IMG/VR virus record: IMGVR_UViG_3300006734_000990
DNA length: 64,000 bases
Direction: 5' to 3' (one strand)
From: a virus
Lineage: Duplodnaviria > Heunggongvirae > Uroviricota > Caudoviricetes
The notes beneath the pieces are model-generated. The model was not told the origin of the DNA. It worked only from the letters and a program-made list of their open reading frames with translations, and did no database searches. Below are positions 5,662-56,093 of the stretch, piece by piece (positions within the stretch are counted from its first letter, which is position 1; every line of letters starts with the position of its first letter). Both the position numbers and the translations under genes were made by a program.

Positions 5662-6546
5662 CTATGCTGTAAGAAACATCCCGCAGGATGCAGCCACATC
5701 CCGGCCGACGCGGGGAACAATCTTTGAGCCCATCAGGGGCATAGCTCCCCCAAGCACCCTCAGAGCTTGCGCGTAGCTTGCGTCGCTGGCCTCGCGGCCG
5801 GTTCTTTCGCTGAAGCTGTTATACCTGACAAGATTCAAGCGTGTTTTCAGGGTGGAATTTTCAAGGAAGTTCCGCAGCGCGACATGATCGCAAAGCCGAT
5901 CGTTCTCTCCTTCAATGAGCGCATGGTGAATAACCACATCCCGTCCCGTCGCGGCCTGCCAATCCTCCAGGCGTGCGAGGGTGGCGTCGGGTGCATCGGC
6001 CTTTGGCAGCCAACGTTTACGGAAGGAGGGCAGGAGGGAGTAGATTGACCAGTAGAAAGTGACCGGGTGGCCCGCGAAAGACTTCACGAGGTTCACATCG
6101 CGCGCGCCAATCGGGAAGATCGAGGAGACATTGATGCGGTAATCGATGCCCCGTTCCTCCGCTGCCGTGCGGATCGGCGCGATAAACCTGTCGAACTCGT
6201 TGCAAAAGTTAGGGTTAAGCAGAGGTTCACCGCGGGCCATCATATTGACGTTCATCCGCGTGACCGGTGCCTTCAGACTGTCGTAATGCTCGATCACCTG
6301 GGAAAACTGCGCGTGATAATCCTCAATCCGCGCCTGCCCCATTTGAACTTCCTTCAACTGGGTTAGATGGCAAAACCTGCAGGCTTGATTGCAACCTGTC
6401 TGGGAGGAGAGATAGGCGATAAAATACTCGGAACTGCGCTGAACGAAACGCGCTTCAAGAGCGCCACCATCTTCGTTTTTCGCAATGAAGTTTACCGAGG
6501 CATCGATCTCAGATGCACGTCTCTGCCACTCGTATGTCATATCCAT
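5662..6546 (-). CDS. RlmN/Cfr-family radical SAM RNA methyltransferase, compact form (about 295 aa; alternative start 6630)
   Basis: SSQTGCNQACRFC (CxxxCxxC), MMARGEPLLN (RlmN GMGEPL), C-terminal NLVRYNSF...RVGRDVAASCGMF matching RlmN NLIPWNPF...RGDDIDAACGQL with the second catalytic Cys; GGAG before ATG 6546; TGCGAAAAG box at 6554-6562. Confidence 0.65.
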   Translation of the reverse strand: MDMTYEWQRRASEIDASVNFIAKNEDGGALEARFVQRSSEYFIAYLSSQTGCNQACRFCHLTQLKEVQMGQARIEDYHAQFSQVIEHYDSLKAPVTRMNVNMMARGEPLLNPNFCNEFDRFIAPIRTAAEERGIDYRINVSSIFPIGARDVNLVKSFAGHPVTFYWSIYSLLPSFRKRWLPKADAPDATLARLEDWQAATGRDVVIHHALIEGENDRLCDHVALRNFLENSTLKTRLNLVRYNSFSERTGREASDASYAQALRVLGGAMPLMGSKIVPRVGRDVAASCGMFLTA

Positions 6547-6671
6547 CTCCTGCCACAGCTTACTTTTCGCAGCTATGCCAGAGAATTTCAGATTACAAAT
6601 GCCAGCCGGTGTCTGCGGCAGTGATCGCAAACATCCCGGACCATGGAAAATTAGTAGCGCGCAGACTTTCC

Positions 6672-6875
6672 CTATGCGTCGGCCCGGGCCTTCTTGGTCT
6701 TGGCTTTCGTGACAGTCTTGGGTTCAACCTCTTGTGCCAGACGCGCCTGGCGCAAACGCTCTGATTTTTCCTGACGTTGAATGGTTTGTGCTTCGATGAT
6801 CTCCAGAGCGGCAGCGGTAGTGCGCTCGGCTTTGGTTTCGCTCTTAGTGGGCGTGAGTGTTTTGGCGGTAGTCAT
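6672..6875 (-). CDS. small basic Lys/Ala/Thr-rich protein (67 aa)
   Basis: ORF only; composition suggests nucleic-acid-binding; weak support. Confidence 0.3.
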   Translation of the reverse strand: MTTAKTLTPTKSETKAERTTAAALEIIEAQTIQRQEKSERLRQARLAQEVEPKTVTKAKTKKARADA

Positions 6876-7119
6876 AGGTTCACTTTCATGATGAGGGCGG
6901 ATCCGCGAAGCTTTCCGAAATGAAAGCGCGTCCCCATAACCATCTAGGTCGATCGGGCGGAAAGAAAACGGTGAGCGTCGTTATCATTACGTGGGAAGGG
7001 GATTTATGCGGCAAATCTAAACAGATTTCGCATCTGCCAGACTTTTGGCTGGCCCCTGCCTTATGAGGGCCATAGCTTGCCCACATATTTTAACGGTTTC
7101 AGTAAGACTTGGGTGATTC

Positions 7120-8190
7120 ATGGTTTTCAAATTTATCAAATCGGTTCTCATTATTCTCGGGCTGATGTTTGGCTCTGTGATTGTCTCGGTGATCTCGCCG
7201 CATCTGGGGTTCTACCTGGGCCTTGCCCTGCTGATCGTGCCCCTCATCGCGTTGATCAAGCCTCTCCCGCAGATCGGATTAGGTCATAGAGGGTTCAGCT
7301 TTTCGGTCGCATTCTTCGTTGGGATCATGGCGACGATGGTGGGCTACAGCACCTTGCAGTCGGTAGATCTGGAAGCAATGTCCGCACTTAAGGCCGCAGA
7401 CCCCGAAGCTTATCTCGCAGAGCTGAAGGAGAAAGACCGTGACATCTGGCTGACGGAGCTGAAGGAGATCGATCCGGAGCGCCACGCCGTCGCGCTGGAA
7501 GAAGAGCGGGTACGCATTGCCGCCGAAGAGGCCCGCCGCGCTGAAGAGGAGGCCGAGCTTGCCGCTAAAAAGGCGATCGATGACGCCAAACAGGCCGAGA
7601 TCGTCCGGAATGCGGAGTTAAAGGAAGCCGAGCGCCAGGCCGCGGCGCGTGACGAGGATATCCAAAACTACCTCGAGATGATGGCGCGCGAGATGGCTGA
7701 CCTCAAGTCATTCGACGTTTCGGAATTCACATCCGATGTCGAGGAGATCAATAAGGCGGCCCTGCTGCTCAATGTCTGGACGATGCTCTACGAGGAAGGA
7801 AAGCAGTATCGGGATGAACCGGCAGTGAAATCAAAGCACGATGACTACCGGCGTCAGATCGTTTCAACCCAGCAGCGCATGCTGCCCGCGCTGCGTGATG
7901 CCTACGGTCCGGCGATGCGCCGGCTGCTTTGGGAGGCGGATGGATCGGCGCGCACGATTGGTAAGGGTTACCGGACGATTGAGTTTGTATCCGCGAGCTT
8001 TGCGCGGAACATGAACATCAAGACGACCCACCAAGAGATCTCGGATATGCTGAAAATGCTGCGTTTCACCCGGGCCCAGTACAAGTGGTTCAAGCAGGCT
8101 ACGGAATACAGCTACTACGATATGGAGGCTCCATCAGATCAGGCGCTTGTCATCTGGGAAAGCAACGGCCGGTACCGGACTATAAAATAA
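7120..8190 (+). CDS. membrane-anchored coiled-coil protein (356 aa)
   Basis: Two N-terminal TM helices then long Ala/Glu/Arg-rich helical segment. Confidence 0.55.
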   Translation: MVFKFIKSVLIILGLMFGSVIVSVISPHLGFYLGLALLIVPLIALIKPLPQIGLGHRGFSFSVAFFVGIMATMVGYSTLQSVDLEAMSALKAADPEAYLAELKEKDRDIWLTELKEIDPERHAVALEEERVRIAAEEARRAEEEAELAAKKAIDDAKQAEIVRNAELKEAERQAAARDEDIQNYLEMMAREMADLKSFDVSEFTSDVEEINKAALLLNVWTMLYEEGKQYRDEPAVKSKHDDYRRQIVSTQQRMLPALRDAYGPAMRRLLWEADGSARTIGKGYRTIEFVSASFARNMNIKTTHQEISDMLKMLRFTRAQYKWFKQATEYSYYDMEAPSDQALVIWESNGRYRTIK

Positions 8191-8477
8191 TGCAGAAACG
8201 ACTAGAGGCCGAATTCTTCCTCGTTCTGCTGCGTTTGCTCCACAGGCTCATCAAATATAGGGCCAACTCGTTTCGCGCGTTGTTTCCGAAATCACGACCC
8301 GGGCGCTGCAGGGCAACACCAAACTTCCGGTCCTCGCCGTCCTGAGTTCGGGTATAGGGCCCACGTAAAACGTAGGGTATTTACCATTTGCTTTAACTCG
8401 GGAAATCCTCAAAATATCTTGCACTTGAATACCCGCTTTAAAGATGCTGGTTCAACGGAAAACAGAAAAGAAGATTT

Positions 8478-9227
8478 ATGGCTGATCGAGAATATATAAA
8501 CGTTATGGGTGTCTTGGTCGCGCAGGACAGTATGAGCTCAATTGAAGTGATAACTGCAAAATTCACGTATGTATTGCTTCTGATCTTCAAGATAATTTGG
8601 GGCCTTTCCGCGATATTTTTTGTTGTGGAGTATTTCGACTTAGGTATCCCTCGGATACTCTCGGCAGGTGAGCCAAGCCCCTTCATTCTGTTTCTCTCTT
8701 TGTTTTTCTCGATAATGTACCTTTGGGCCGACGCATCTATTCGTGACAATAAATATGCCGTTCGAGTAACGCTGGATTCGGGCAGGGCATTGACCTCCCG
8801 CCAGATCAGCTTGGATCTTGCCCTTGCATACAAGAATAAACTTCAGAAGACCTTCGAACTCGGCGAGACCGGCAGTACATTCGAGCATGAAGGAACCGTT
8901 TACCATTCAAATGACATCATCACGGTTCGGACTTACAGAAGTATCCCAGAGAGATGTTTTTTGGCGACGCTGGTCTATGGTGTCGCATTCTCAATTGTGC
9001 TCTTCATGGTGGTCCAAGATGGAATGAGCGCGTCGGCGCTATTGTTTATTCCCATATTTTTTGTTCCAGCTGCATGGGCGGCAATCAATACCCTGAACGG
9101 CGATAACAAGCTGGAGGTTATATCTTCTTCTGGTAAGGGCATGGTGACCTCAAAAGTCAGCCGTATATCTGAAGATAGTGCAAATATCAGAGATTTTATC
9201 TATTCCAGCGTAGCAGTACGTTCTTAG
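8478..9227 (+). CDS. integral membrane protein in a low-GC patch
   Basis: Several hydrophobic helices; region 8200-9240 markedly AT-richer than surroundings. Confidence 0.5.
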   Translation: MADREYINVMGVLVAQDSMSSIEVITAKFTYVLLLIFKIIWGLSAIFFVVEYFDLGIPRILSAGEPSPFILFLSLFFSIMYLWADASIRDNKYAVRVTLDSGRALTSRQISLDLALAYKNKLQKTFELGETGSTFEHEGTVYHSNDIITVRTYRSIPERCFLATLVYGVAFSIVLFMVVQDGMSASALLFIPIFFVPAAWAAINTLNGDNKLEVISSSGKGMVTSKVSRISEDSANIRDFIYSSVAVRS

Positions 9228-9691
9228 GGCTCATCAGGCTCCGGCGGTTTGACTTTGCTTTCCGCCTTGTTGGCAAGACCGCGGACCTCGCCTTCAAAGT
9301 GCAAGCGGCGGACCCCTGAGAGATCCGGACAGTCCTGCACAACCCCCTCCGGGTCTAGCCCCAGCGAGATATGAGCATTGAACTCCGGGAAGGCAAAATG
9401 CGCGCCGGCCGTGACCAGCGCGCGGTGCCGCTCCTCGATCTCAGGGCAACGCATGGTCAGCACCAGGTGAGGGCCGAACCGGTCAAAGGCAAGATCCTGC
9501 GGCACGATCTCCAGGGGGTCTTCCATCGCTTGGAAGACAGGCAAGTTCCAATCGACCTCGCGCTTGGAATAGATCAGCGTCATATGCAGTTCGACTTCCC
9601 GCTCGAAGTCAAAACCCGACATCATATCGACAATCATGTCATTGTCGGTCGAGGCGAGGGGGCGTTTGATGTAGAGGGACTTCAGTTTCAT
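9224..9691 (-). CDS. 2H phosphoesterase superfamily protein (LigT / cyclic phosphodiesterase-like)
   Basis: Two H-x-(T/S)-x motifs: HMTLIY and HISLG about 80 aa apart; overlaps upstream gene by 4 nt. Confidence 0.6.
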   Translation of the reverse strand: MKLKSLYIKRPLASTDNDMIVDMMSGFDFEREVELHMTLIYSKREVDWNLPVFQAMEDPLEIVPQDLAFDRFGPHLVLTMRCPEIEERHRALVTAGAHFAFPEFNAHISLGLDPEGVVQDCPDLSGVRRLHFEGEVRGLANKAESKVKPPEPDEP

Positions 9692-10881
9692 TGGGGTTCT
9701 CCGAGTTCGTTCGAGACATCTGCCGCTAATTTACGAGCTTCACGGTCCCGGTGGGTGATCATTTCGGGCATCTCGAAGATACCGGCGGCCATGATCGGAA
9801 GAGCATCTGCTTTATCCAGATCATAGAGCACCTCATCGCCTTCTTGCTCGAATGCCAAAAGAGTTTCAGGATCCAGCATGTAACGAAAGTTCGACCCGGC
9901 TGGCGCGAGGGCGCTGAAGGCGGAGCTGCTTTGAGCGAGAGTGTCGAGAAAAGCACCCGCTCCGGATTTTGAGAAGCCTCCTGCTTCCAGGACTTCCGCA
10001 AACCTGTCTCGCGGTCCGCAAAGGAACTGGCCTTCATCCACAAGACGCTTCAACCCGCGGACTTCGCCGCGGTAGGCGATAACGCCATCCGGGCCCGCCT
10101 CGACAGACACAGATTCATCTTGCCGCAGCATCATTTGTGAGATGCCAATTTCATTCAATGGAAGGAGGTTCATCAGCATACGACCGGCGATGCTGTCATA
10201 TTGGTCTCGCCGGTTTAGCTCAATATCCTTCATGGCCTTTGACCATGCCTGCCAAGCCTTGATGGAGGTGTCATAGTCGATTTCGTCGCAATGAAAGCTC
10301 ATCAAGCCGTAGATCTCAACCGGTTCCGGGCTGGGATCGCTATCCTTATAGGCGATATACCTTGGCGGCGGCTGAAGTGTGCTTCCGTCACGCGCGCAGA
10401 ATACTGCCTGAAGGCCGTCCATTTTGATATCGACGTGCTCACCGGTCACCCATGATTTGAGGCCTTGCCCGGTGTAGGGTCGCATGCCGCCACCCGAAAG
10501 AATATCCGGGAGGTTCTTAACGAGGGCTGCATCAATCGCGTCATAGTCGTCCTTGAAGACAACTCGAAAGAAATCCGGTACGTCACCGACAGCATTCGTG
10601 ACGAAGATATTCGCAAGGGTTCGACAATCCCAATCTTCACACTGGCCCCGCAGTGCGCGGTTCCACACAGTTTTGAAATGGGTGTCATGCCCCAGGTCAT
10701 CGATCTCCTGGATCTGGCCTTGCGCGCCCAGCTCCTTAAAGAGGGGCTCGATAACCTCTTTTTGAATGGCTCGGTCATAGACCTCAAGATGGTTCATACA
10801 GCCGCGGACGTCCTTGCCTGGGCGGTTCTCTTTGAGGATCTGCAGAAGCTTCTCTTCGATATCGGCTGCATTGGGGGTCAT
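9688..10881 (-). CDS. hypothetical protein with KxDG nucleotidyltransferase-like motif (candidate RNA/DNA ligase-like), 397 aa
   Basis: DIKMDGLQ resembles ligase motif I KxDG; co-operonic with 2H phosphoesterase; function tentative. Confidence 0.5.
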   Translation of the reverse strand: MTPNAADIEEKLLQILKENRPGKDVRGCMNHLEVYDRAIQKEVIEPLFKELGAQGQIQEIDDLGHDTHFKTVWNRALRGQCEDWDCRTLANIFVTNAVGDVPDFFRVVFKDDYDAIDAALVKNLPDILSGGGMRPYTGQGLKSWVTGEHVDIKMDGLQAVFCARDGSTLQPPPRYIAYKDSDPSPEPVEIYGLMSFHCDEIDYDTSIKAWQAWSKAMKDIELNRRDQYDSIAGRMLMNLLPLNEIGISQMMLRQDESVSVEAGPDGVIAYRGEVRGLKRLVDEGQFLCGPRDRFAEVLEAGGFSKSGAGAFLDTLAQSSSAFSALAPAGSNFRYMLDPETLLAFEQEGDEVLYDLDKADALPIMAAGIFEMPEMITHRDREARKLAADVSNELGEPQ

Positions 10882-20994: not shown

Positions 20995-21945
20995 TTACTT
21001 GGTTTTGGCTGTCGGGGTAGTCTTGCGGGGCGTTGCTTTTGCCGGGGCTTTCACCTGCTGACCTGCAGCGATCATGCCCATGGTTGCGGCATCTTTGGTT
21101 TCCTTGGCCGCAGCCGTCACGAAGACCACACTGCCACCCGCGGATGCAGCATCGCGCAGCGCTTCCATCTCATTGATCGAGGTGAAGAAGTCGAGGCCGG
21201 CGCTGGCCGACAGACCTGTGCTGCCCACGAAGGCCTGCAGAGCTTCAGCGTTGCCTTCGGCAACCTTCTTGCGGAAGGACGCATAGGCTTCGGCCTTGAT
21301 GTTCATGGCTTCGCCTTCCGCGTGCGATTTCGCAATTGAAAGTGTTTTCGCAGCTTCACCTTCGTTGATCGCCGCTTCTTTGAGGCGCTCAGATGCAATG
21401 ACGCGGTCGAAGGCCTGACGGAGTTCTTCTGAGGGCTGCGGATCATCGACGAGCACGTTCTCAATCCGAAAGCCGAAGCCGGACATCTTTTCGGTCAGAG
21501 TGCCTTCGACACCATCTTCAAAGGTATCGCGCGCCTGAAAGAGCTGATTGAACGACAGGCTCGAGGCTGTGGAACGTACCTGGTTGACGACGTAGGAGCG
21601 GATCTGGCCTTCAGGGTTGTTCAGCTTATAAAAGGCGTCCTGCGCTGTGTCTTCGTCGACGCAGAACTGGACGCGGATCGGCACCAACACGAAGGCATTG
21701 TCGGAGGACTTCACATTAACGTCCTCGGAGATCTCACGGATCTTCAACGAAAAGTTTGGCGATGCAGCCTGGAACGGCCAAGGCGCTTTGAACGACAAGC
21801 CAGACTTTCTAACCGAGGAGAACCTGCCGAAGGTGGAGATGATCTTGACGTGTTGTTGCTGCGTGATGACCACGGTTGATGCGGCCATCAATAGAAGTAC
21901 GACAGTGGCGATGGCGATATGGACCGCGGTGAGTGTGATAAACAT
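20995..21945 (-). CDS. SPFH / Band 7 (stomatin-prohibitin) family membrane protein
   Basis: N-terminal TM helix then ISTFGRF...KAPWPF... typical SPFH core, Ala/Glu-rich C-terminal helices. Confidence 0.7.
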   Translation of the reverse strand: MFITLTAVHIAIATVVLLLMAASTVVITQQQHVKIISTFGRFSSVRKSGLSFKAPWPFQAASPNFSLKIREISEDVNVKSSDNAFVLVPIRVQFCVDEDTAQDAFYKLNNPEGQIRSYVVNQVRSTASSLSFNQLFQARDTFEDGVEGTLTEKMSGFGFRIENVLVDDPQPSEELRQAFDRVIASERLKEAAINEGEAAKTLSIAKSHAEGEAMNIKAEAYASFRKKVAEGNAEALQAFVGSTGLSASAGLDFFTSINEMEALRDAASAGGSVVFVTAAAKETKDAATMGMIAAGQQVKAPAKATPRKTTPTAKTK

Positions 21946-22049: not shown

Positions 22050-23297
22050 TCACGGGGGCGCATCATGCGCCTCCGAGATTACCGCTACGAGGTCCTCAAT
22101 CGAGACCGAACGCTCTTTGCCGTTCATCTTCAGCATCACCTCGCCGCGCTCGACCTCACGCTTGCCGATTACCATCTGCACCGGGATCAGCTTATCCCGC
22201 ACCATGACAATCCGGCGGCCAAGCCCCTCAGACTGGTCAAAGAGGGCAGGGCGCAGCCCTGCGGCGCGCAGCTGGTCCATGACCGCCACCGCAGCATCGC
22301 GCTGGTCATGCCCGATCGGCAGCACAGCGACCTGTACCGGTGCCAGCCAGAGGGGCAGGCGGCCTTCGCAATGCTCCAGCAGGATGCCGATGAAGCGTCC
22401 GAGCGAGCCAAGCACCGCGTGGTGCAGCATCACGGGCTGATGTTTGGCGCCGTCTTTCCCCACATAGGAAGCGTCCAGGCGGCCTGGCAGGACCATGTCG
22501 AGCTGAATGGTGCCGCACTGCCACGAACGGCCCTTCTTGTCGCGCAAGGCGAACTCCAGCTTCGGACCGTAGAATGCGCCTTCGCCGAGCTGCAGCTTTG
22601 GGTCGAGCCCACAGGAGAGCGCCGCTTCCAGCAATTCCTGCTCTGCATGATCCCAATCCGCATCATTGCCGGCGCGCTTTTCTGGACGCAGCGACAGCGC
22701 CACTTCGAAGTCCGTAAACCCCAGAGCAGCATAGACCTCCTTCAGCAGTTCAACGAAGCGCGCGACTTCGCCACGGACCTGATCGGGATCGCAGATCACA
22801 TGGGCATCGTCCTGCTCAAATGCCTTGGTGCGCATCAGCCCATGCATGGAGCCCGATGCCTCATCGCGGTGGCACTGGCCAAACTCGGCAATGCGCATCG
22901 GCAGATCACGCCAGGAGCGCAGGTCCGAATTGAAGATCTGCAAATGACAGGGGCAACTCATCGGCTTCAGCGCCATATCGCGGCCGCCTTCCTCACGCGC
23001 CGGCACGGCGAACATGTTGTCGCCGAACTTCTCCCAATGGCCCGACGCTTCCCAGAGGGACTGGGGCAGCAGCTGCGGCGAGCGCACCTCGCCGTAGCCC
23101 AGGCTGCGCATGCGGTTACGGATGTAGTCCTCGAGCTCGCGGTAGATCTGCCAGCCAGCGGCGTGCCAGTAGATCATGCCCGGCGCATCTTCCTCGATGT
23201 GGTAGAGATCGAGACGGCGTGCCAGCACACGATGATCCAGAGGATCCATGCCTTGTTCGCGGGAGATGTCGAGGTTCTGTGCGTTGTTCTTATTCAT
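22050..23297 (-). CDS. threonyl-tRNA synthetase-like protein, catalytic plus anticodon-binding domains only (N-terminal TGS/editing domains absent), 416 aa
   Basis: DHRVLARRLDLYHIEEDAPGMIYWHAAGWQIYRELE ... matches E. coli ThrRS from about residue 240 ([26 protein letters not shown]...); class II motifs and C-terminal ABD present; AAGGA before ATG 23297. Confidence 0.8.
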   Translation of the reverse strand: MNKNNAQNLDISREQGMDPLDHRVLARRLDLYHIEEDAPGMIYWHAAGWQIYRELEDYIRNRMRSLGYGEVRSPQLLPQSLWEASGHWEKFGDNMFAVPAREEGGRDMALKPMSCPCHLQIFNSDLRSWRDLPMRIAEFGQCHRDEASGSMHGLMRTKAFEQDDAHVICDPDQVRGEVARFVELLKEVYAALGFTDFEVALSLRPEKRAGNDADWDHAEQELLEAALSCGLDPKLQLGEGAFYGPKLEFALRDKKGRSWQCGTIQLDMVLPGRLDASYVGKDGAKHQPVMLHHAVLGSLGRFIGILLEHCEGRLPLWLAPVQVAVLPIGHDQRDAAVAVMDQLRAAGLRPALFDQSEGLGRRIVMVRDKLIPVQMVIGKREVERGEVMLKMNGKERSVSIEDLVAVISEAHDAPP

Positions 23298-23345
23298 CGT
23301 CTTGGTCCTTTGTGGGGTATCAAATTGGACGCGAGACAATAAAAA

Positions 23346-26527: not shown

Positions 26528-27202
26528 CTATTCAGGAGAGACTGTCCAGCGCTCGAATTCCTCTGCTGGCAAAGCATCCGGCTTTCGCCGTACTTGCTGC
26601 AAGATCTGCTTCTCTACGGCCTCCTGCGCCTCGATCAAGCTCTCGATCCAGGATTCCGCGACCCGCTGACCGGTCCGATTGGACATGCCCGCGATCTGAG
26701 CTTCCAGCTTTTCGAGGCTGTCGATCTCATCGAGCACCTCTTGGTAAAGTGTATTGAGCGTCTCCGAAGAGCACTCCGGCAGCTCCGGGTGCTCTGGGAT
26801 CTCACCGGGATCCGACCATTTGATCGATCCCCAGCCTGGTGATCGCACGGCCGGGCTGTCTGACGCCGTCCAGATCTTCTGCGCAGCCTTTTCGGCCATA
26901 CCTTTGCGCTCGCGCCGAAAACCATAGAAATCATGTTTCTTCAGCGCGCAGATGCGCATCGTATCATCATCAGGATAGGTGGTGAATACGATCAGCTTGG
27001 CGGCCACATGCATGTGACGGATGCCCGCGAAGCGTTTGCCTGAGAAGGGATTGTCTCCGCCGGGCTCGCCCGCGGCCGCCTTGGCAACCATTTCACCGAT
27101 CTGTTTGCGGATCGTCCAATAGTCCGGATGGTTCCTGGCCTTGGCCAGGTCTTTCCAGAAGAGCTTCGAAATTTCGACCTTACTGATCTTCCTCGCGCTC
27201 AT
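26528..27202 (-). CDS. RelE/ParE/YafQ-superfamily toxin-like protein with about 130-aa C-terminal extension
   Basis: N-terminal 95 aa: FWKDLAKA ... GKRFAGIRHMHVAAKLIVFTTYPDDDTMRICALKKHDFYG resembles RelE/YafQ core (R-x-H, Y, HD, F/Y); start ATG overlaps upstream small ORF by 23 nt. Confidence 0.5.
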   Translation of the reverse strand: MSARKISKVEISKLFWKDLAKARNHPDYWTIRKQIGEMVAKAAAGEPGGDNPFSGKRFAGIRHMHVAAKLIVFTTYPDDDTMRICALKKHDFYGFRRERKGMAEKAAQKIWTASDSPAVRSPGWGSIKWSDPGEIPEHPELPECSSETLNTLYQEVLDEIDSLEKLEAQIAGMSNRTGQRVAESWIESLIEAQEAVEKQILQQVRRKPDALPAEEFERWTVSPE

Positions 27203-34617: not shown

Positions 34618-34992
34618 ATGGACAAGCGTAAGATCAACGACACACTCCCTGACCAGGTGATGTCTCGGTTGTCGGTGTTCGGGTCTGATATTTCCGCCGC
34701 GCGGCGTGCGCGCAACATCAGCCAAGCTGATCTGGCGGATCGGATCAACGTCGCGCGCCGCACGGTTGTCAGGATGGAGCAGGGTGACGCGCGTGTCAGT
34801 TTCAGCGCCTATGTCTCCGTCGCCTGGGTGTTTGGCTTGGAGGGTAGGCTCTTTGATGCCTTCAGCTCGGAGACAGACCCGGTACAAATTCGCGAAGCGC
34901 GTTTGAACATCCCACGGCGCATCGATGCACCTCGCGGTGCCAGGCACACTGCTGAGACAGTCTCGGCCGACGACAAAGGATTGGATTTCTAA
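34618..34992 (+). CDS. hipB: HipB-like XRE-family HTH antitoxin
   Basis: ISQADLADRINVARRTVVRMEQG helix-turn-helix; TAATG overlap with hipA. Confidence 0.7.
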   Translation: MDKRKINDTLPDQVMSRLSVFGSDISAARRARNISQADLADRINVARRTVVRMEQGDARVSFSAYVSVAWVFGLEGRLFDAFSSETDPVQIREARLNIPRRIDAPRGARHTAETVSADDKGLDF

Positions 34993-36326
34993 TGGAACAC
35001 AAGGCTATCGTATTTCTCGAACTGCATGGCGAAACTGTTCCTGTGGGACGACTGGTAATTACAGAAGACGGGCGTTATTCGCGCTCGGATTTCGACTACG
35101 GCCGCAAGTACCTCGAGCGCCCGGACGCCGTGGCGATCGACCCCGTTCAGATGCCGCTGGGAAAAGAACACCTGCGCACCCATGAGGACTTCACCCTCTT
35201 CAACGGGATCCGGGATGCAGCGCCTGACGCCTGGGGCCGCAAGCTCATCGATCTTTACATGAAGCGCACCGAGGGGCGGGCCGCTTCCGAGGCCGAGTAT
35301 CTGCTGGTCTCCCAGCGCGGGACCCGGATCGGTGGCGTTCAGTTCGGCCCCACCACGGAAGGGCCTGGCCAGATCCTCGATGTGGGCCTACCCGATGTCT
35401 CCTCTGACCTCGGCACGCTCGAAGCCTTCCAAGAGATGGTCGACACCTTCAAAGCCGGCCGTCATGTGCCGGACCACCTGCTTGATCACGTCTCCCCCGG
35501 TGCAGATCTCGGTGGTGCGCGCCCCAAGGGCACGGTGACGATCAATGATCACCCCTGGCTGGCCAAATTCGGCATCGAGAGCGACAGCATCACTATGGCC
35601 GCGGCCGAGGCTGGCTGCCTGGATCTCTGTGAGATGGCAGGACTGTCGGTTTGCGAGCGCGACATCATCGATGTGGCAGGCCGCCCGACCTTACTGTTGA
35701 AACGCTTTGACCGTGAACCCGATGAGAGCGGCAAGCTCCACCGCAGGCATATGATCTCCGGCCTGACCTTGCTGGGCGCCCATGAGATGGACCGGGCCGC
35801 TTCGGGATATGCAGATCTTTATGATGGCATGCGCCGCTTCGGCGCGGCAGACGATGCCGGAGAGACGATCTACCGGCGCATGGTGATGAATGTCCTGTGC
35901 GGCAATACAGATGATCATTACCGCAACCATGCCTTCCTGCTCAATGATGAGGGGCTCTATGTGCCAAGCCCGGTTTATGACGTCACGCCCTCCACTGGCT
36001 TCTCGACCAGCCGCAGCCTCTTCATGCATCTGGGTAAGGCCGGCTGCGGCCGGGATGCGACGCTGGAGAATGCGGTGGCGGGTGCTGCGAGCCTCGGTGT
36101 GTCCCAGGCGCGCGCGACAGAAATCGCTAATGATCTGAGCCATATGGTGGGTAAGAGTTGGCGCCGCGTTCTGTCGGACCGCGGGGCGACGGAAGCGGAC
36201 CTTGAGACGTTGGAGACGAGCTTCTCGGAAGCTGGCCGGTCTGTAGGTCTGGACCACAGCGCAGTGTTCAATCCTTTCGACACTCCGACGCATGACCGCA
36301 AGGGTCCCGCTTTGCCAAATCCGTAA
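34992..36326 (+). CDS. hipA: HipA-family serine/threonine kinase toxin
   Basis: 444 aa; catalytic-loop motif NTDDHYRNHAFLL (HipA N.DDH.KN.S), N-terminal HipA_N-like region; operon with HTH gene. Confidence 0.8.
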   Translation: MEHKAIVFLELHGETVPVGRLVITEDGRYSRSDFDYGRKYLERPDAVAIDPVQMPLGKEHLRTHEDFTLFNGIRDAAPDAWGRKLIDLYMKRTEGRAASEAEYLLVSQRGTRIGGVQFGPTTEGPGQILDVGLPDVSSDLGTLEAFQEMVDTFKAGRHVPDHLLDHVSPGADLGGARPKGTVTINDHPWLAKFGIESDSITMAAAEAGCLDLCEMAGLSVCERDIIDVAGRPTLLLKRFDREPDESGKLHRRHMISGLTLLGAHEMDRAASGYADLYDGMRRFGAADDAGETIYRRMVMNVLCGNTDDHYRNHAFLLNDEGLYVPSPVYDVTPSTGFSTSRSLFMHLGKAGCGRDATLENAVAGAASLGVSQARATEIANDLSHMVGKSWRRVLSDRGATEADLETLETSFSEAGRSVGLDHSAVFNPFDTPTHDRKGPALPNP

Positions 36327-51400: not shown

Positions 51401-51943
51401 ATGAGCAAATGCCCTACCTGCGGTGCAGTATCTTCTGAAGAGAACCAGGCCCCACAAAACAGCGAAGCCGAAATCGTTCTGCGCATCCCCGAGCGGCACT
51501 TCCCGCTCATGCGCAAGACCTTTCGCGAGATGGAAGTGAAGTTGGGTATGCACGGGCTTGGCGAGCTGGCAAATACGCTCAAACCCTATGGGGCCTTATT
51601 TGACAAAGACTTCGACAAGCTGCGCTATTTCAATGATGGCGCATTGGGAATGGTGATGCATGGGATCACGGCCGGCTATCCGGCCGCGGTTCGGATTGCT
51701 GAAGGAAACGACAAGCTCTTCGCTTCCCACGAGCGCGGTAAACGCGTTGCGGTTCATGTCGACTTCACCTTCCCTGACGGTCAGGTCAAACACATGGCGG
51801 TTGCGGAAAGCGCGACGCCTGAGGCGGCCGCCTGGTTCACCGATTACATCAATGATCTCTGCGACAGGCTTTCGCCGCAAAACCCCCAGGGAAACTCAGA
51901 TCAAAGATCGGATATCCAGGAGAACAATGATGCGGGGTTCTGA
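51401..51943 (+). CDS. hypothetical protein with N-terminal CPxCG zinc ribbon (180 aa)
   Basis: KCPTCGA; overlaps next gene start. Confidence 0.5.
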   Translation: MSKCPTCGAVSSEENQAPQNSEAEIVLRIPERHFPLMRKTFREMEVKLGMHGLGELANTLKPYGALFDKDFDKLRYFNDGALGMVMHGITAGYPAAVRIAEGNDKLFASHERGKRVAVHVDFTFPDGQVKHMAVAESATPEAAAWFTDYINDLCDRLSPQNPQGNSDQRSDIQENNDAGF

Positions 51944-53207
51944 AAAGAAAGCCTTTGGCGTTGTCGGCGCCGGCTGGGGCGATGAGGGCAAGGGGCTCGC
52001 CACAGACGCGCTGACAGCACATTTGATGGGGCAGGGGCGCCAAGTTACTGTTGTGCGCTCCAATGGCGGCGCACAGGCGGGCCATGGGGTCACGATGGAT
52101 GACGGTCGCCACCATGTTTTCCACCACATCGGCTCCGGATCATTCCGGGGTGCAGCCACCCATCTGTCGCGCTTTTTCGTCTCCCACCCGATGGTCTTCT
52201 TCTCAGAGCTGGAGGAGCTCGCGCGCAAAGGCGTCCATGACCTGCAGATCACGGCCGATCCGCGCTCTGTGATCACCACACCTTGGGACATGGCAATCAA
52301 TCAGGCGGCAGAGATCGCCAGAGGCGCAGGTAAGCATGGCTCCTGCGGATTGGGTTTCGGGGAGGCACTGGAGCGTCATGAGAAAGGGTCTCAACTCACA
52401 ATGCAGGACCTCTTCTCACCAGGACTGATGTCTCGGCTGGAACAGATTGCCTCGGTTTGGGTGCCTGCGCGACTGGCAGCCTTGGGGCTCACAGATATCC
52501 CGGTTCACTTGAGACCTGTACTGAACAATGCATCAGGGTTCGTCGGCCGGTTTGCAAAAGACCTGCAGAAATATAGCGCGGTCGTCTCTCTCATGTCCGA
52601 TGAAGCCCTGGGAGATTGCGATGCGGTGGTTTTTGAGGGCGCTCAGGGTTTGCAGCTTGATATGGACCTTGGGGTATTTCCCCATGTGACGCGGTCTTAC
52701 ACCGGCGCAAAGAACATGGTCGAGATCGCCCGCGACGCCGGGATCACGGATCTCGAGGTCATCTACATGACCCGCGCCTATGCCACGCGGCACGGGGCAG
52801 GGCCCTTCCCGCTCGATCGAGGCACGACGCCCCTGCCAGGCACCCATGTCATTGATCGGACCAACAGACCAAATGAGTGGCAGGACGCCATCCGCTACGC
52901 GCCTTTGGACCTTAGAGAGTTGGACCGCATCATCTCGGCTGATCTCGCGCGCAGCTGCGGTCAGGGCGTAAACATCGATCATGGTTTGGGTGTTACCTGC
53001 CTGGACCAGCTGGGCGACAAGGTTTTGATGTCTGTGATGGATATGGGGGATGGGCCCTATGTATCGGAGGTCGACACCGAGAACCTCGCGGATGTCATCT
53101 CCGGGCTTTCAGGTCACCCTCTCAAACTCAAATCAGAAGGCCCCTGTGCCGAGAAGGTCGATCTGTCGCTTCTCGCACCTGTTCCTCATGAAGAGCCCTG
53201 TCCCTGA
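51927..53207 (+). CDS. adenylosuccinate synthetase family protein, divergent (PurA/PurZ-like), 426 aa
   Basis: GAGWGDEGKG (PurA P-loop GxQWGDEGKGK), GGAQAGHG, VVFEGAQGLQLDMDLGVFPHVTRSYT (PurA [22 protein letters not shown]), YATRHGAGPFPLD (YSTRVGAGPFP); PurA GATTGRRRR loop replaced. Confidence 0.7.
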   Translation: MMRGSEKKAFGVVGAGWGDEGKGLATDALTAHLMGQGRQVTVVRSNGGAQAGHGVTMDDGRHHVFHHIGSGSFRGAATHLSRFFVSHPMVFFSELEELARKGVHDLQITADPRSVITTPWDMAINQAAEIARGAGKHGSCGLGFGEALERHEKGSQLTMQDLFSPGLMSRLEQIASVWVPARLAALGLTDIPVHLRPVLNNASGFVGRFAKDLQKYSAVVSLMSDEALGDCDAVVFEGAQGLQLDMDLGVFPHVTRSYTGAKNMVEIARDAGITDLEVIYMTRAYATRHGAGPFPLDRGTTPLPGTHVIDRTNRPNEWQDAIRYAPLDLRELDRIISADLARSCGQGVNIDHGLGVTCLDQLGDKVLMSVMDMGDGPYVSEVDTENLADVISGLSGHPLKLKSEGPCAEKVDLSLLAPVPHEEPCP

Positions 53208-54624: not shown

Positions 54625-54658
54625 CGCCAGAGTTCAGTTTCGCGCCCGATACCCATGC

Positions 54659-54683
54659 ACCCGCCCCTGAGGCGGGTTTTTTT
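54659..54683 (+). terminator. CCCGCC-CCTGA-GGCGGG hairpin followed by TTTTTTT immediately upstream of tRNA genes
   Basis: Perfect 6-bp GC stem with U7. Confidence 0.75.
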
Positions 54684-54693
54684 ATGCCCATAC

Positions 54694-54769
54694 GTCTCCT
54701 TAGTTCACCCGGTTAGAACAGCAGCCTTTCAAGCAGCAGAAACGAGTTCGAGACTCGTAGGAGATGCCA
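54694..54769 (+). tRNA. tRNA-Glu (anticodon UUC)-like, 76 nt, encoded CCA, G1-U72 wobble and an A-A mismatch in anticodon stem
   Basis: Manual fold: acceptor GTCTCCT/AGGAGAT, D-arm GTTC-ACCCGGTTA-GAAC (G18G19), anticodon loop CTTTCAA, 4-nt variable loop, T-arm ACGAG-TTCGAGA-CTCGT. Confidence 0.65.
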
Positions 54770-54782
54770 AAATCACCACCAC

Positions 54783-54858
54783 GTCCGCATAGTTCAATTG
54801 GTTAGAATAGTGCCCTCTCAAGGCACAGACGCGAGTTCAATCCTCGCTGCGGATGCCA
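54783..54858 (+). tRNA. tRNA-Glu (anticodon CUC), 76 nt, encoded CCA, G1-U72 wobble
   Basis: Manual fold: acceptor GTCCGCA/TGCGGAT, D-arm GTTC-AATTGGTTA-GAAT, anticodon stem GTGCC/GGCAC loop CTCTCAA, 4-nt variable, T-arm GCGAG-TTCAATC-CTCGC. Confidence 0.7.
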
Positions 54859-54874
54859 AATTCAGGAGACCAAG

Positions 54875-55225
54875 ATGTTGTCACTGTCGCGCTTTTTTAA
54901 ACGTCGCCCCAAGGCACCTGAGCTGCCTCGCTTTCCAGACCGGGCCGAGGCGGCTGCATGGATGCGCAGCAAGATTGTTCAGACGCGACAGAGGTCACCT
55001 CACGAGGCCCAGCGCCTCTTTGATCCGACATCCGGAGATTACCTGCCCGCATCCGTCCATACAGGATCGTATTTCGATGAAGACGCTCTAGTGGCATATC
55101 GAGCCCTCAAAGCCGAGTTCCCAGATCTTGTTGCGGCCTCATTCAATGAGCCAATGGCATTCTGCGTCTCGCGCATCGCGGACCCGGAAGATCTTCATGC
55201 TCATGCACATCGAATTGGCGTCTGA
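54875..55225 (+). CDS. hypothetical protein (116 aa)
   Basis: ORF between tRNAs and GluRS-like gene. Confidence 0.4.
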   Translation: MLSLSRFFKRRPKAPELPRFPDRAEAAAWMRSKIVQTRQRSPHEAQRLFDPTSGDYLPASVHTGSYFDEDALVAYRALKAEFPDLVAASFNEPMAFCVSRIADPEDLHAHAHRIGV

Positions 55226-55238
55226 AAGGATTTTCACA

Positions 55239-56093
55239 ATGACCTACACAACCCGAGTAGCCCCGTCTCCAACTGGCGACTTTCACATCGGCACAGCCCG
55301 CACCGCCTATTTCAACTGGCTCGCCGCGCGCGCCTCTGGCGGTCGCTTCCTCCTGCGCATCGATGACACCGATCTCGCGCGCAACAACGATGCCTCGATC
55401 AGCGTGATCCATGATTGCCTCGATTGGTTGGGGCTTACGCCTGACGCCGTCTACCGTCAGTCGCACCGGCGCGACATCTATGATGCCGCGGCTACAAAGC
55501 TTCTTGATGCAGGGCTGGCAGTCCGTGCCGACAATGGTGCTGTGCTGATGAAGGGTGGGGCAGCCGCGCCGTGGCACGATCTGATTTCCGGCGACCAGCT
55601 GCCCAGCTCCAAGGCGCATGACCTGGCGCGCGATCAGGTGCTCATCAAAGCTGACGGTATGCCGGTCTATCATTTCGCCTCAGTGGTCGACGATATCGAT
55701 CTGCGCGTGAACCTGGTGATCCGGGGCATGGACCATGTGACCAACACTTTCCGTCATGCGGGGATCTACGCTGCCCTCGGTGCGCCAATGCCGGATTTTG
55801 CCCATGTCGGCCTGATCACCATGGGTGGCAAGAAGATGTCCAAACGCGACGCCGCGGCAAGCCTTCTGGGGTACCGCGATGACGGTGTCGATCCCGATGC
55901 CATGCTGAACTATCTGCTGCGCGTCGGCTGGGGCCCGCGCCAGGATGACAAGTCGATGAAGATCATCGATCGGGCTCGGGCGGTTGATCTGTTTCTGGAT
56001 CACGGCAAGATGCGGTCCTCGCCGGCCGCGATGGATCTGGCAAAACTTGCCAGCTTCGATCGGAAGTACAAGCACATGAAACGGCCTGCATAG
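55239..56093 (+). CDS. glutamyl-tRNA synthetase catalytic domain protein lacking the anticodon-binding domain (GluQRS-like architecture, GluRS-like sequence), 284 aa
   Basis: APSPTGDFHIGTARTA (HIGH), VYHFASVVDDIDLRVNLVIRGMDH, GKKMSKRD (KMSKS), LNYLLRVGW - co-linear with E. coli GltX residues 1 to about 300; stops shortly after. Confidence 0.75.
   Translation: MTYTTRVAPSPTGDFHIGTARTAYFNWLAARASGGRFLLRIDDTDLARNNDASISVIHDCLDWLGLTPDAVYRQSHRRDIYDAAATKLLDAGLAVRADNGAVLMKGGAAAPWHDLISGDQLPSSKAHDLARDQVLIKADGMPVYHFASVVDDIDLRVNLVIRGMDHVTNTFRHAGIYAALGAPMPDFAHVGLITMGGKKMSKRDAAASLLGYRDDGVDPDAMLNYLLRVGWGPRQDDKSMKIIDRARAVDLFLDHGKMRSSPAAMDLAKLASFDRKYKHMKRPA

Follow-up and report, generated by a model that had tools for sequence, protein, structure and literature searches.

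The window, by which we mean the whole 64,000-nt stretch analysed here, comes from the IMG/VR virus record IMGVR_UViG_3300006734_000990 and contains about 80 closely packed genes, is 87% coding with 27 changes of strand, and has a uniform composition (GC 0.51–0.60). Under half of the approximately 75 window ORFs scanned have a Pfam match at E ≤ 0.001, and no near match to the window was found among 50,697 phage and 72,556 plasmid records. The translation-related loci occur on both strands, dispersed between genes of no known family (Table 1). Out of the eight such loci named in the original prediction six are real, namely those of ThrRS, TrpRS, GluRS, Pth2, a 2H phosphoesterase and hipBA.

Table 1 Features located in the window and the basis of their assignment.
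Feature	Coordinates	Strand	Basis or remark
Radical-SAM protein, remote RlmN/Cfr-like core	5662..6630	-	PF04055, TIGR00048
Acb1-like 2H phosphoesterase, two HxT/S motifs	9224..9691	-	PF23474, E 8.4e-17
397-aa protein, tiny element-specific family	9688..10881	-	21 representatives among 1.84 billion proteins
SPFH/Band-7 protein adjoining ThrRS	20995..21945	-	PF01145, E 3.2e-30
ThrRS catalytic core and anticodon-binding domain	22050..23339	-	TIGR00418, E. coli ThrRS alignment
266-aa protein, no family match	26528..27328	-	Profile and PDB searches
GNAT-like acetyltransferase	27500..28078	+	Sub-threshold profile scores
Complete TrpRS, C-terminal extension of ~40 aa	30892..32028	+	TIGR00233
HipB-type HTH antitoxin	34618..34992	+	PF01381/PF13560; stop overlaps hipA start
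HipA-family Ser/Thr kinase toxin	34992..36326	+	PF07804, E 7.3e-39; Shewanella HipA alignment
Pth2-type peptidyl-tRNA hydrolase, divergent	42677..43144	-	PF01981, E 5e-13
NrtR-like Nudix and winged-helix regulator	47988..48683	-	48% homologue in locus L090
Adenylosuccinate-synthetase-like protein, divergent	51660..53207	+	Profile match
Terminator-like hairpin with T-run	54659..54677	+	Directly before the first tRNA
tRNA-Glu (UUC)	54694..54769	+	Non-canonical D-arm (UAGUUCA...GAAC), G1·U72, G73, encoded CCA
tRNA-Glu (CUC)	54783..54858	+	Non-canonical type, as the adjacent tRNA-Glu (UUC)
116-aa conserved ORF, located after the tRNAs and before GluRS	54875..55225	+	Homologues, Ka/Ks
GluRS catalytic domain, 284 aa	55239..56093	+	Profile match, family alignment, PDB-chain comparison
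865-aa protein, weak PcfJ-like region	56130..58727	+	Kept as downstream neighbour in the close clade

The ThrRS is N-terminally truncated, as had been predicted: it lacks the TGS and editing domains (family length about 390–416 aa), scores 442.5 bits against TIGR00418 (cut-off 383.65, model positions 150–561) and aligns to residues 229–616 of E. coli ThrRS. Its motifs MSCPCH, QDDAHV and MLHHAV give C, H and H at the presumed zinc positions, which we take to be the three zinc ligands of the E. coli enzyme. The protein corresponds to the truncated E. coli core 1EVK, which aminoacylates without editing. The same truncation is present in 12 of 13 ThrRS genes on selected IMG/VR viral contigs (149–578 kb). 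A spurious 459-aa antisense ORF overlies the ThrRS gene, which is therefore skipped by longest-ORF calling. A homologue of the adjoining SPFH/Band-7 protein (37%) lies 8 kb from ThrRS on the 437-kb IMG/VR contig L270.

The TrpRS assignment stands as well (224.6 bits against TIGR00233, cut-off 176.75), with a HIGH-type motif (HLGH) and KMSKS both present. The protein proposed to be a GNAT acetyltransferase gives a family signal that is consistent across four GNAT models but stays below threshold (about 23 bits vs the cut-off of 27). Its homologues, 42–44% identical, are located between or beside ThrRS and TrpRS in the related loci L091 and L193, and the one in L091 likewise matches GNAT weakly.

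The GluRS gene encodes the catalytic domain without the anticodon-binding domain, directly behind the tRNA-Glu genes, as originally described, although the start shared by the family is the ATG at 55239 and not position 55128, where the ORF had been begun. The protein ends just past the conserved FDRKYK motif and possesses HIGH (as HIGT) and KMSKR motifs. Its domain architecture is that of GluQRS, but in sequence it is much closer to GluRS, scoring 252 bits as GluRS vs 150 as GluQRS with the NCBIfam models and 184 vs 76 bits against PDB chains. With HIGH and KMSKS motifs intact and the presumed ThrRS zinc ligands kept, the synthetases of the element look active. The short ORF upstream of the GluRS gene has 40% identical counterparts at this place in Paracoccus ME4 (L007) and Leisingera (L004), with Ka/Ks of 0.13–0.20 (0.32 for one near-identical pair). 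It is unrelated to the GluRS anticodon-binding domain.

Selection acts on both the truncated GluRS and its tRNAs. The enzyme belongs to a conserved family with Ka/Ks of 0.03–0.055; in the cassette tRNAs the cloverleaf is formed in 98.8% of the cells scored, 12 pairs carry compensatory changes and the acceptor end (G1·U72, U2-A71, C3-G70) is invariant. Two to three tRNA-Glu genes (UUC, CUC), many with a non-canonical D-arm, always precede the truncated GluRS in the Rhodobacterales clade, and tRNA-Glu lies directly upstream in all the members examined at ≥60% identity (the window, L001, L003, L004, L006, L007, L008, L092, L094–L099, L132 and L150). Such direct adjacency is not seen in remote members (45–55% identity). 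A tRNA-Glu gene within 1.5 kb upstream was found in only 9 of 58 evaluable metagenomic loci, and many of the remaining loci lie in or near large tRNA arrays. In the window, the hairpin before the first tRNA marks the start of a separate unit.

The peptidyl-tRNA hydrolase is of the Pth2 type, as claimed (PF01981, 49.7 bits vs the cut-off of 23), with the NCBIfam Pth2 model below its cut-off. The radical-SAM part of the suggested RlmN/Cfr-like methyltransferase was recovered (PF04055, 31.7 bits, cut-off 29.5; CxxxCxxC as CNQACRFC and a C-terminal ...AASCG...), but its likeness to RlmN/Cfr is remote only (TIGR00048 RlmN, 53.9 bits, cut-off 290). The pair read as a 2H phosphoesterase and a KxDG ligase of the tRNA healing and sealing kind is retained in its 2H half. 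The specific match of this protein is to anti-CBASS Acb1 (PF23474, 61.7 bits, cut-off 27) and not to a tRNA-repair enzyme, and the first 4 nt of its gene are also the last 4 of the preceding minus-strand gene, that for the 397-aa protein. The ligase reading of the latter is not supported, with the motif lysine in only 2 of the 10 aligned members of the 21-member family; no match was found in Pfam, NCBIfam, PHROGs or PDB with either the single sequence or the family profile. Its homologue in L092 (39%) adjoins an Fmt gene. The true start of the adenylosuccinate-synthetase-like gene is probably internal, the gene called in a relative having 425 aa.

The gene set co-occurs on many other contigs, the three synthetase genes lying together on at least 11 related ones. 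All three are carried by the complete 535,398-bp plasmid CP151277.1 of Paracoccus sp. ME4, GluRS and ThrRS by a 519,115-bp Epibacterium contig, where ThrRS is flanked by uncharacterised genes homologous to those of the window, and TrpRS, GNAT and ThrRS lie inside 9 kb of a 528,791-bp Pseudosulfitobacter contig; eight further contigs, matched by identical lengths, are common to the three homologue tables. Local gene order is as in the window in L091 and L092, and in distant relatives the three genes are more than 100 kb apart. Metagenomes hold syntenic relatives, including LAZR01000009.1 (375,787 bp). An average bacterial genome would have about 0.36 synthetase genes per 63 genes, against three counted here (Poisson P ~0.006), but the recurrence on many independent contigs is more telling than this enrichment. 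Relatives also encode SmpB, Fmt and Ro60/TROVE.

GluRS and ThrRS truncated in this manner are encoded by IMG/VR viral contigs of 150–610 kb and by 800-kb Variovorax megaplasmids, which also share with the element the trio of truncated GluRS, Pth2 and NrtR and are known to carry tRNA genes (PMC7313664). The Pth2 homologue near the truncated GluRS on a Variovorax megaplasmid is 36% identical to that of the window, and those in L131 and L163 are 32% identical. The truncated GluRS family has members at 18 viral loci in IMG/VR, the majority on contigs of 230–608 kb; the window's own clade was not found in the IMG/VR search.

These data support the view, taken already in the original prediction, that the window is accessory and mobile, and neither core nor a chromosome segment: its relatives lie on replicons of about 0.4–0.64 Mb. 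The synthetases are horizontally carried extra copies, ThrRS sharing only about 49% identity with Rhodobacteraceae thrS genes on PLSDB replicons and the genes residing on a plasmid record in ME4, a location that suggests a host with full-length thrS, trpS and gltX of its own. The idea of an ordinary chromosomal region with three housekeeping enzymes, its remaining genes being annotation noise, could draw on the uniform GC and on the SDR and RTX genes of chromosomal look at the right end, but it is already contradicted by the ME4 plasmid location and the low thrS identity, as well as by the truncated architectures, the extreme share of genes without a known family and the synteny that the SDR and RTX genes keep in element relatives.

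Based on the observed gene identities, architectures, mobile context and co-occurrence, it is quite probable, as one joint reading, that the window belongs to a giant mobile element of marine Rhodobacterales that exists outside the chromosome, and that elements of this family bring along an auxiliary translation kit of their own, made of minimal enzyme cores. The replicon is left as either a megaplasmid or a huge phage-like episome, because profile searches of the window and sampled flanks found no hallmark genes of replication, partition, conjugation or virions. The kit would comprise ThrRS without editing and TGS domains, the compact TrpRS, the small Pth2 and the truncated GluRS with its own two tRNA-Glu. 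As to which enzyme charges which tRNA and when it matters, we infer the following. The truncated GluRS would charge the co-encoded tRNAs via their invariant acceptor end, since it has no anticodon-reading domain, and the charged tRNAs would then read GAA and GAG codons in ribosomal translation. In combination with ThrRS, TrpRS and Pth2 this would make charged-tRNA supply and tRNA recycling independent of host enzymes, and may sustain or boost translation of the acidic proteome (median pI 5.3; Glu the third commonest residue, 7.7%) when the element is active or host translation is throttled. The genes for hipBA, Acb1 and the like would be the usual addiction and counter-defence genes, interspersed with the kit and not wired to it.

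It had been proposed instead that the three synthetases and tRNA-Glu form a coherent unit with hipBA and other toxins, supplying toxin-insensitive replacements or decoys, so that translation by the element or its carrier cell could go on even with the host enzymes disabled by HipA-type kinases or tRNA-directed toxins. GltX and TrpS are reported targets of HipA-family kinases, also in the alphaproteobacterium Caulobacter (PMC7029023, PMC8545095, PMC8262856). In the window hipBA (HipA catalytic loop GNTDDHYRN) lies 3 kb from TrpRS, and translation-directed toxin modules recur near synthetases in relatives: ME4 has two hipBA modules less than 8 kb from ThrRS and AbiEii adjoining TrpRS, and Pseudosulfitobacter has MNT-HepT near ThrRS. 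A full bypass of GltX and tRNA-Glu would, moreover, need an enzyme plus its own tRNAs, as found. We nevertheless regard this explanation as unlikely. Toxin insensitivity is not supported, as nothing in the GluRS and TrpRS sequences points to it: both retain the KMSKS-loop serines targeted by HipA and HipT, the one in the GluRS fragment being invariant in 32 sequences. About 100 related loci were examined, and none has a HipA homologue less than 10 kb from the truncated GluRS; the window HipA is not a conserved partner, because it shares only 30% identity with one of the HipA pair in ME4. With hipBA so loosely linked and the translation loci scattered, a coherent module is not supported; ThrRS is not known to be targeted by HipA, and large mobile elements often carry toxin-antitoxin modules in any case. 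The proposed RelE/YafQ-like toxin gene, 26528–27328, yielded no profile or PDB match, and its single-sequence structure model (pLDDT 54) is unusable.

The synthetases and tRNAs might also feed aminoacyl-tRNA-dependent modification of DNA, RNA, peptides or lipids, with the GNAT serving as a transferase in the manner of Mom, or the GluRS fragment acting on an RNA base as GluQRS does. Phage Mu Mom, of the GNAT superfamily, transfers glycine from Gly-tRNA to DNA (PMC13219725), the GNAT-like gene is conserved beside TrpRS and ThrRS in three elements, the fragment shares the GluQRS architecture, and the loss of editing and anticodon-reading domains would suit a carrier role. This is very unlikely in view of the sub-threshold GNAT match and the closeness of the fragment to GluRS. 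The linked anticodons are always those for Glu (UUC, CUC) although the enzyme has no anticodon-binding domain, which argues for use in decoding and is not expected of a mere carrier.

Synthetase copies collected by a plasmid for self-resistance or acquired resistance to natural inhibitors (borrelidin or obafluorin in the case of ThrRS, indolmycin in that of TrpRS) would have a precedent in duplicated TrpRS, IleRS and SerRS genes that confer antibiotic resistance (reviewed in PMC9437257). Such an origin appears highly improbable: neither the window nor its flanks showed a biosynthetic gene cluster, huge viral contigs bear the same truncated architectures, and the set of three different synthetases, tRNAs and Pth2, to which relatives add SmpB and Fmt, suggests a general role in translation.

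An auxiliary translation kit would place this element beside the huge phages, giant viruses and tRNA-carrying megaplasmids that bring translation genes of their own. Huge phages encode both tRNAs and synthetases (PMC7162821). Such genes are already known from giant phages and megaplasmids, but the cassette described here and the element family that carries it both appear to be undescribed so far.

The strongest and most interesting result concerns a cassette formed by a gene for a truncated glutamyl-tRNA synthetase (GluRS) and two tRNA-Glu genes, all features being listed in the table below. The GluRS fragment matches the catalytic domain profile PF00749 (E value 3.6e-57) and possesses the HIGT and KMSKR motifs, invariant across the family, while its score with the bacterial GluRS model TIGR00464 (gltX_bact) is 252.4 bits, below the cut-off of 289.95. 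It stops at about residue 334 of 488-aa GluRS chains, the C-terminal α-helical anticodon-binding domain being absent. The original prediction of a GluRS catalytic part without this domain, located behind two tRNA-Glu genes, is thus correct except for the gene start, which really lies at 55239, giving a protein of 284 aa. Members of the family are about 277–311 aa long, and 32 of the 32 aligned ones end after FDRKYK, past which full-length GluRS runs on into the anticodon-binding domain. The Ka/Ks values of 0.03–0.055 indicate strong purifying selection.

Features of the window discussed in the text
Feature	Coordinates	Strand	Remark
N6 DNA methylase fragment	3519-4253	-	
EF-hand calcium-binding protein	4366-4920	+	
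Radical-SAM protein	5662-6630		
Predicted Acb1-type 2H phosphoesterase	9224-9691		
Protein proposed as KxDG ligase	9688-10881		
Truncated ThrRS	22050-23339	-	
PLD-like domain	25403-26395	-	weak
Protein proposed as RelE/YafQ	26528-27328		
GNAT-like gene	27500-28078	+	
TrpRS	30892-32028	+	
hipB and hipA	34618-36326	+	
YpsA/SLOG domain	36343-36945	-	circularly permuted
Pth2	42677-43144	-	
phrog_4776 match	46645-47850	-	E 3.3e-23; function not assigned
phrog_2971 match	49925-50848	+	E 3.6e-49; function not assigned
Adenylosuccinate-synthetase-like gene	51660-53207	+	divergent; purA 134 bits vs cut-off 402
YgjV-type membrane protein	53221-53745	-	adjoins adenylosuccinate-synthetase-like gene
tRNA-Glu(UUC)	54694-54769		upstream of truncated GluRS
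tRNA-Glu(CUC)	54783-54858		upstream of truncated GluRS
orf116	54875-55225	+	good ribosome-binding site; between tRNA-Glu genes and truncated GluRS
Truncated GluRS	55239-56093		
RTX repeat protein	62081-63580	+	syntenic in relatives

The same architecture, namely the GluRS catalytic domain alone with a length of about 290 aa and no anticodon-binding domain, is known from GluQRS/YadB, the glutamyl-queuosine tRNA-Asp synthetase, which glutamylates queuosine-34 of tRNA-Asp. The fragment is, however, clearly closer to GluRS (252 versus 150 bits): the GluQRS model TIGR03838 gives 149.7 bits, below its cut-off of 276.7, and in the PDB comparison the fragment scores 184 bits with GluRS chains and 76 with the YadB chain 1NZJ. 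Unlike GluQRS/YadB, it has no cysteine cluster in the connective region and is genetically coupled to genes for tRNA-Glu, not tRNA-Asp.

All the examined members with at least 60% identity (the window and loci L001, L003, L004, L006, L007, L008, L092, L094–L099, L132 and L150 from its relatives) are immediately preceded by two to three tRNA-Glu genes in the same orientation, with both UUC and CUC anticodons represented in nearly all cases; in the window, a terminator-like hairpin is located 5′ of the first tRNA. The conserved orf116 (116 aa) recurs in several elements and is found at the same position in Paracoccus sp. ME4 and Leisingera with 40% identity, and its Ka/Ks is 0.13–0.20 in most comparisons. 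Its product has no match to known families, and the suggestion that it supplies the anticodon-binding domain in trans was rejected with an hhalign probability of 0.2%.

The cassette tRNAs are of two types, one with the usual tRNA-Glu D-arm and the other with an Asp/Asn-like D-arm (UAGUUCA...GAAU), to which both copies in the window belong. Among 12 tRNAs of the latter type, the cloverleaf is kept in 98.8% of cells with compensatory changes in 12 pairs, and G1.U72, U2-A71 and C3-G70 are invariant. The idea that G1.U72 is an oddity was dropped, as ordinary actinobacterial tRNA-Glu genes in the loci have the same pair; the non-canonical feature of the cassette tRNAs is the D-arm. A PLSDB search with both types returned no usable host tRNA-Glu for comparison. 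In three close relatives, L001 (9545-9620), L098 and L099 (both 8897-8972), the anticodon stem of the second tRNA is rewritten and its loop reads ACCUCAC, with C at position 33, which is near-universally U, whereas the window and L094 retain the normal CUCUCAA loop.

The linked tRNAs always have Glu anticodons although the enzyme has no anticodon-binding domain, the simplest reading of which is that they would decode on the ribosome, with the enzyme presumably recognising the acceptor end. Alternatively, the charged tRNAs may serve a non-ribosomal reaction, as with the phage Mu protein Mom, a GNAT which uses Gly-tRNA for DNA modification (PMC13219725), and it is consistent with this that a GNAT-like gene is kept beside TrpRS and ThrRS in three elements. 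The conserved Glu anticodons, however, oppose such use for the GluRS cassette and favour ribosomal decoding. As for the GNAT-like gene itself, which had been regarded as a GNAT acetyltransferase, its matches are sub-threshold and weaker than claimed.

The other two synthetases of the original prediction are genuine. The ThrRS scores 442.5 bits with TIGR00418 (cut-off 383.65; aligned model positions 150-561), contains the class II core (PF00587) and the HGTP anticodon domain (PF03129) and aligns to E. coli ThrRS residues 229-616, the N-terminal TGS and editing (N2) domains being absent from it; the family members are about 390–416 aa long. The window protein retains C, H and H at the positions which we take to be the three zinc ligands of E. 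coli ThrRS. With Rhodobacteraceae thrS on PLSDB replicons it shares about 49% identity, with Burkholderia thrS 55%; it was not copied recently from the host gene. The same core with the anticodon-binding domain, without TGS and editing domains, is seen in the E. coli crystallisation construct PDB 1EVK and in the split ThrRS-cat of some archaea; in contrast to these, the window protein represents a natural bacterial family on mobile elements, its activity being predicted and mischarging of serine being possible, and no separate editing protein was identified for it. The TrpRS, with HIGH and intact KMSKS motifs, covers the whole of TIGR00233 (model positions 3-328 of 328) with 224.6 bits against a cut-off of 176.75. 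In IMG/VR viral contigs of 149–578 kb picked for comparison (L195-L270), ThrRS genes are truncated as well (386–435 aa in 12 of the 13), a general feature of huge phages of which no mention was found in the literature searched. Synthetases reduced to a minimal core thus appear to recur in giant mobile genomes.

Replaced by a codon-usage model, greedy longest-ORF calling had overlooked ThrRS and several true genes because long antisense ORFs conceal real genes, ThrRS included. Such ORFs, by which simple longest-ORF calls are misled, are located at 21963-23342 (+), 49880-51031 (-), 41356-42372 (+) and 19685-20452 (+), the longest one, of 459 aa, being opposite ThrRS.

Among the remaining translation-related loci, Pth2 passes the gathering score of PF01981 (49.7 versus 23 bits), as had been suggested, and stays below the cut-off of the NCBIfam equivalog (41.6 versus 126 bits) and is therefore a divergent member. 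The supposed RlmN/Cfr-like methyltransferase does contain a radical-SAM domain passing its threshold, but its relation to RlmN (53.9 bits, cut-off 290) and Cfr (38.2 bits, cut-off 530) is remote. The proposed tRNA healing and sealing pair dissolves. Its first protein is of the 2H type, with HMT and HIS as the two HxT/S motifs, but the specific match is to the anti-CBASS Acb1 family (PF23474, 61.7 bits versus a gathering score of 27), making it a predicted Acb1-type anti-CBASS 2H phosphoesterase. Its presumed KxDG ligase partner has no match in Pfam, NCBIfam, PHROGs or PDB, nor does a profile of its family; 1.84 billion proteins include 21 representatives of this family, and the motif I lysine is present in 2 of the 10 aligned members. 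No RelE/ParE superfamily match at E ≤ 1 was obtained for the proposed RelE/YafQ toxin, either with the full protein or with its N-terminal 115 aa. Single-sequence AlphaFold models of the ligase and RelE candidates were poor, with pLDDT of 34 and 54, respectively, too low for a structure search. On the whole, the loci observed in the original prediction are largely real, and describing them as an accessory, horizontally carried and co-occurring gene set was right.

The window has a GC content of 0.51–0.60, uniform along its 64 kb, and contains about 80 genes on both strands with 87% coding and 27 strand switches. Fewer than half of about 75 ORFs scanned have a Pfam match at E ≤ 0.001, and an Rfam scan detected two tRNAs and nothing else. 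The encoded proteins have an acidic composition (Glu 7.7%, Asp 7.2%, median pI 5.3), and the matches to phrog_2971 and phrog_4776 are the sole strong links to phage protein families. There are two paralogous neighbour pairs with no known function, 11974-12885/14861-15508 and 43596-44129/44175-44735. The divergent adenylosuccinate-synthetase-like gene and the YgjV-type gene are both kept in close relatives. The former resembles PurA (134 bits) more than the PurZ of a Z-genome phage (38 bits), and a 2-aminoadenine genome is thus not indicated; it retains a GDEGKG loop, which we assume to be the PurA-type signature.

Megablast gave no near match to the window in 50,697 phage and 72,556 plasmid records, and look-ups of its exact TrpRS and GluRS proteins were likewise negative; raw assemblies, however, contain many relatives. 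The region of 46–64 kb is syntenic with several metagenomic contigs at 55–96% protein identity, including Logan SRR14866210 and marine-sediment LAZR01000009.1 (375,787 bp). In more distant relatives, the same synthetase genes are carried by very large replicons, namely 'plasmid unnamed1' of Paracoccus sp. ME4 (complete, 535,398 bp; CP151277.1), contigs of Epibacterium sp. DP7N7-1 (519,115 bp; JAHWRP010000004.1) and Pseudosulfitobacter pseudonitzschiae (528,791 bp; JBMGNR010000005.1) and contigs of Leisingera and Cereibacter sphaeroides; a JGI contig of 642 kb is a further relative. Genes of no known family at 11974-15508 have homologues of 30–40% identity beside the Epibacterium ThrRS, so the elements are related as wholes, beyond the synthetases. 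The first paralogous pair and the genes at 13392-13964 and 14021-14824 are those found there (locus L089, 12.6–16.1 kb).

The sampled flanks of the relatives code for SmpB, RNase H, Fmt, Ro60/TROVE, FtsH, LigA, SbcCD, thymidine kinase, a sigma factor, NADAR, ART and AcrVA2-like domains, phage-type lysozyme and several toxin-antitoxin modules. Near the synthetases in L089 (Epibacterium), L092 (JGI 3300037296), L193 (Pseudosulfitobacter) and L192 and L088 (both Paracoccus ME4), there are genes for SmpB, methionyl-tRNA formyltransferase, Ro60/TROVE, FtsH, RNase T and RNase H, as well as AbiEii, MNT-HepT, two hipBA modules and ART-PolyVal and AcrVA2-like domains.

Contigs common to the three homologue tables, recognised by identical sizes in bp, carry all three synthetases (535,398 bp), GluRS and ThrRS (519,115 and 40,309 bp), GluRS and TrpRS (449,438, 1,120,264, 1,824,351 and 23,247 bp) or ThrRS and TrpRS (15,447, 98,014, 229,702 and 88,549 bp). 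As in the window, ThrRS, GNAT and TrpRS follow one another in this local order on a JGI contig and in Pseudosulfitobacter, and another contig has TrpRS followed by two tRNA-Glu genes and GluRS. In ME4 and Epibacterium the synthetase genes are more than 100 kb apart, so the gene set is a property of the element and not an operon.

Housekeeping gltX dominated the results when genomes were scanned with the full GluRS alignment, only L007 and L008 being true members, and the metagenome and viral scans were performed with a C-terminal, family-specific alignment. This profile revealed 80 metagenomic loci, many on contigs of 290–670 kb and one on 1.46 Mb, and 18 loci on IMG/VR viral contigs, most of them 230–608 kb long. 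In remote members (45–55% identity) tRNA-Glu genes are not directly adjacent, and the gene often lies in or near large tRNA arrays. In three remote huge elements (L153, L173 and L159) ARAGORN detected tRNAs with UUA and CUA anticodons, i.e. stop-codon readers, near the truncated GluRS, which may point to stop-codon recoding.

Huge phages are known to encode tRNAs and synthetases as a general phenomenon (PMC7162821). Like these and giant viruses, the element is a very large mobile genome with mostly genes of no known function and has tRNAs, several synthetases and other translation factors distinct from those of the host, and huge viral contigs in IMG/VR (150–610 kb) contain GluRS of the same truncated family and ThrRS of the same truncated architecture. 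In contrast to huge phages, no capsid, portal, terminase or tail genes were seen in Pfam scans of the window proteins and a PHROGs scan of ten of them, the window representing about 64 kb of a 0.4–0.6-Mb element, and PHROG scans of 20 large proteins with no known family gave no structural or replication matches. The window's own clade is also absent from IMG/VR according to single-protein scans, and the complete relative is a plasmid record from a cultured Paracoccus. Neither the window nor the flanks sampled in relatives yielded a gene for replication, conjugation or virion formation, so the element may be either a megaplasmid or a huge phage-like episome.

A giant replicon with a tRNA array is also represented by Variovorax megaplasmids of the pSRS16-1 type (about 800 kb), RepB-ParAB and tra genes being reported on them (PMC7313664), with nothing comparable seen in the window. 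Within 10 kb, the Variovorax sp. SRS16 plasmid 2 (locus L090, LR594667.1, positions 620–645 kb) carries a truncated GluRS (51% identity), Pth2 (36%) and an NrtR-type Nudix regulator (48%), adjoining tRNA-Glu, Arg and Asp genes; in the window, the same three are found within 13 kb (42677-56093). On the Variovorax side, however, the host is a betaproteobacterium and the GluRS copy is interrupted by an IS element. The passages searched in PMC7313664 discuss the tRNAs with no mention of the synthetase fragment. The shared trio hints at an old core that giant elements of different classes may have in common. No precedent for a GluRS that lacks the anticodon domain and is fixed in one cassette with its own tRNA-Glu pair turned up in the literature searched, nor did anything specific describing these elements.

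It had further been proposed that the translation genes and hipBA form a coherent module that could supply toxin-insensitive or decoy translation factors. The hipBA genes are real, with the HTH antitoxin gene overlapping that of a HipA_C kinase with an intact catalytic loop, as in type II hipBA toxin-antitoxin modules, although the kinase differs widely from characterised HipA proteins (22 bits to Shewanella HipA; YjjJ model 31 versus a cut-off of 401). According to PMC7029023, PMC8545095 and PMC8262856, HipA-family kinases target GltX and TrpS, Caulobacter included, phosphorylation of an aminoacyl-tRNA synthetase being known for characterised HipA and HipT, and translation-directed toxin modules do recur near synthetases: hipBA is 3 kb from TrpRS in the window, ME4 has two hipBA modules within 8 kb of ThrRS and AbiEii by TrpRS, and Pseudosulfitobacter has MNT-HepT by ThrRS. 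However, the target serines of the KMSKS-type loop are kept in both the GluRS fragment and TrpRS, about 100 loci were free of HipA homologues within 10 kb of the truncated GluRS, no conserved linkage of hipBA to synthetase genes was found, and the window HipA is only 30% identical to one ME4 copy; toxin-antitoxin modules are, moreover, common on large elements anyway. A coherent hipBA-linked module is thus possible but unsupported.

The truncated ThrRS, TrpRS, truncated GluRS, Pth2 and the tRNA-Glu pair probably make up an auxiliary translation kit, carried by a giant mobile element which consists largely of genetic dark matter. Elements with such kits are a known kind; new here are the undescribed family, the cultured hosts and the distinctive GluRS-tRNA cassette. 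A tentative reading, which we hold to be rather unlikely, is that the GluRS fragment and the non-canonical tRNA-Glu pair would form an orthogonal charging system for Glu decoding when host GltX or tRNA-Glu is disabled, e.g. through HipA-type kinases or tRNA-directed toxins, the carrier being an undescribed family of about 0.5 Mb related to huge phages and stable in cultivable Rhodobacterales, with Paracoccus, Epibacterium, Leisingera, Cereibacter and Pseudosulfitobacter as tractable carriers.

Translation genes of giant phages and megaplasmids are known almost entirely from metagenomes, and why they are carried is a standing question. The presence of the same truncated synthetases on replicons of about 0.5 Mb in cultured bacteria makes it accessible to experiment. 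An anticodon-blind GluRS with its own tRNA-Glu(UUC/CUC) is a compact and strongly conserved unit, which could reveal how a synthetase recognises tRNA by the acceptor end alone, could be a ready-made orthogonal pair for genetic-code engineering and makes it possible to test directly whether host translation control points such as GltX are bypassed by mobile elements.
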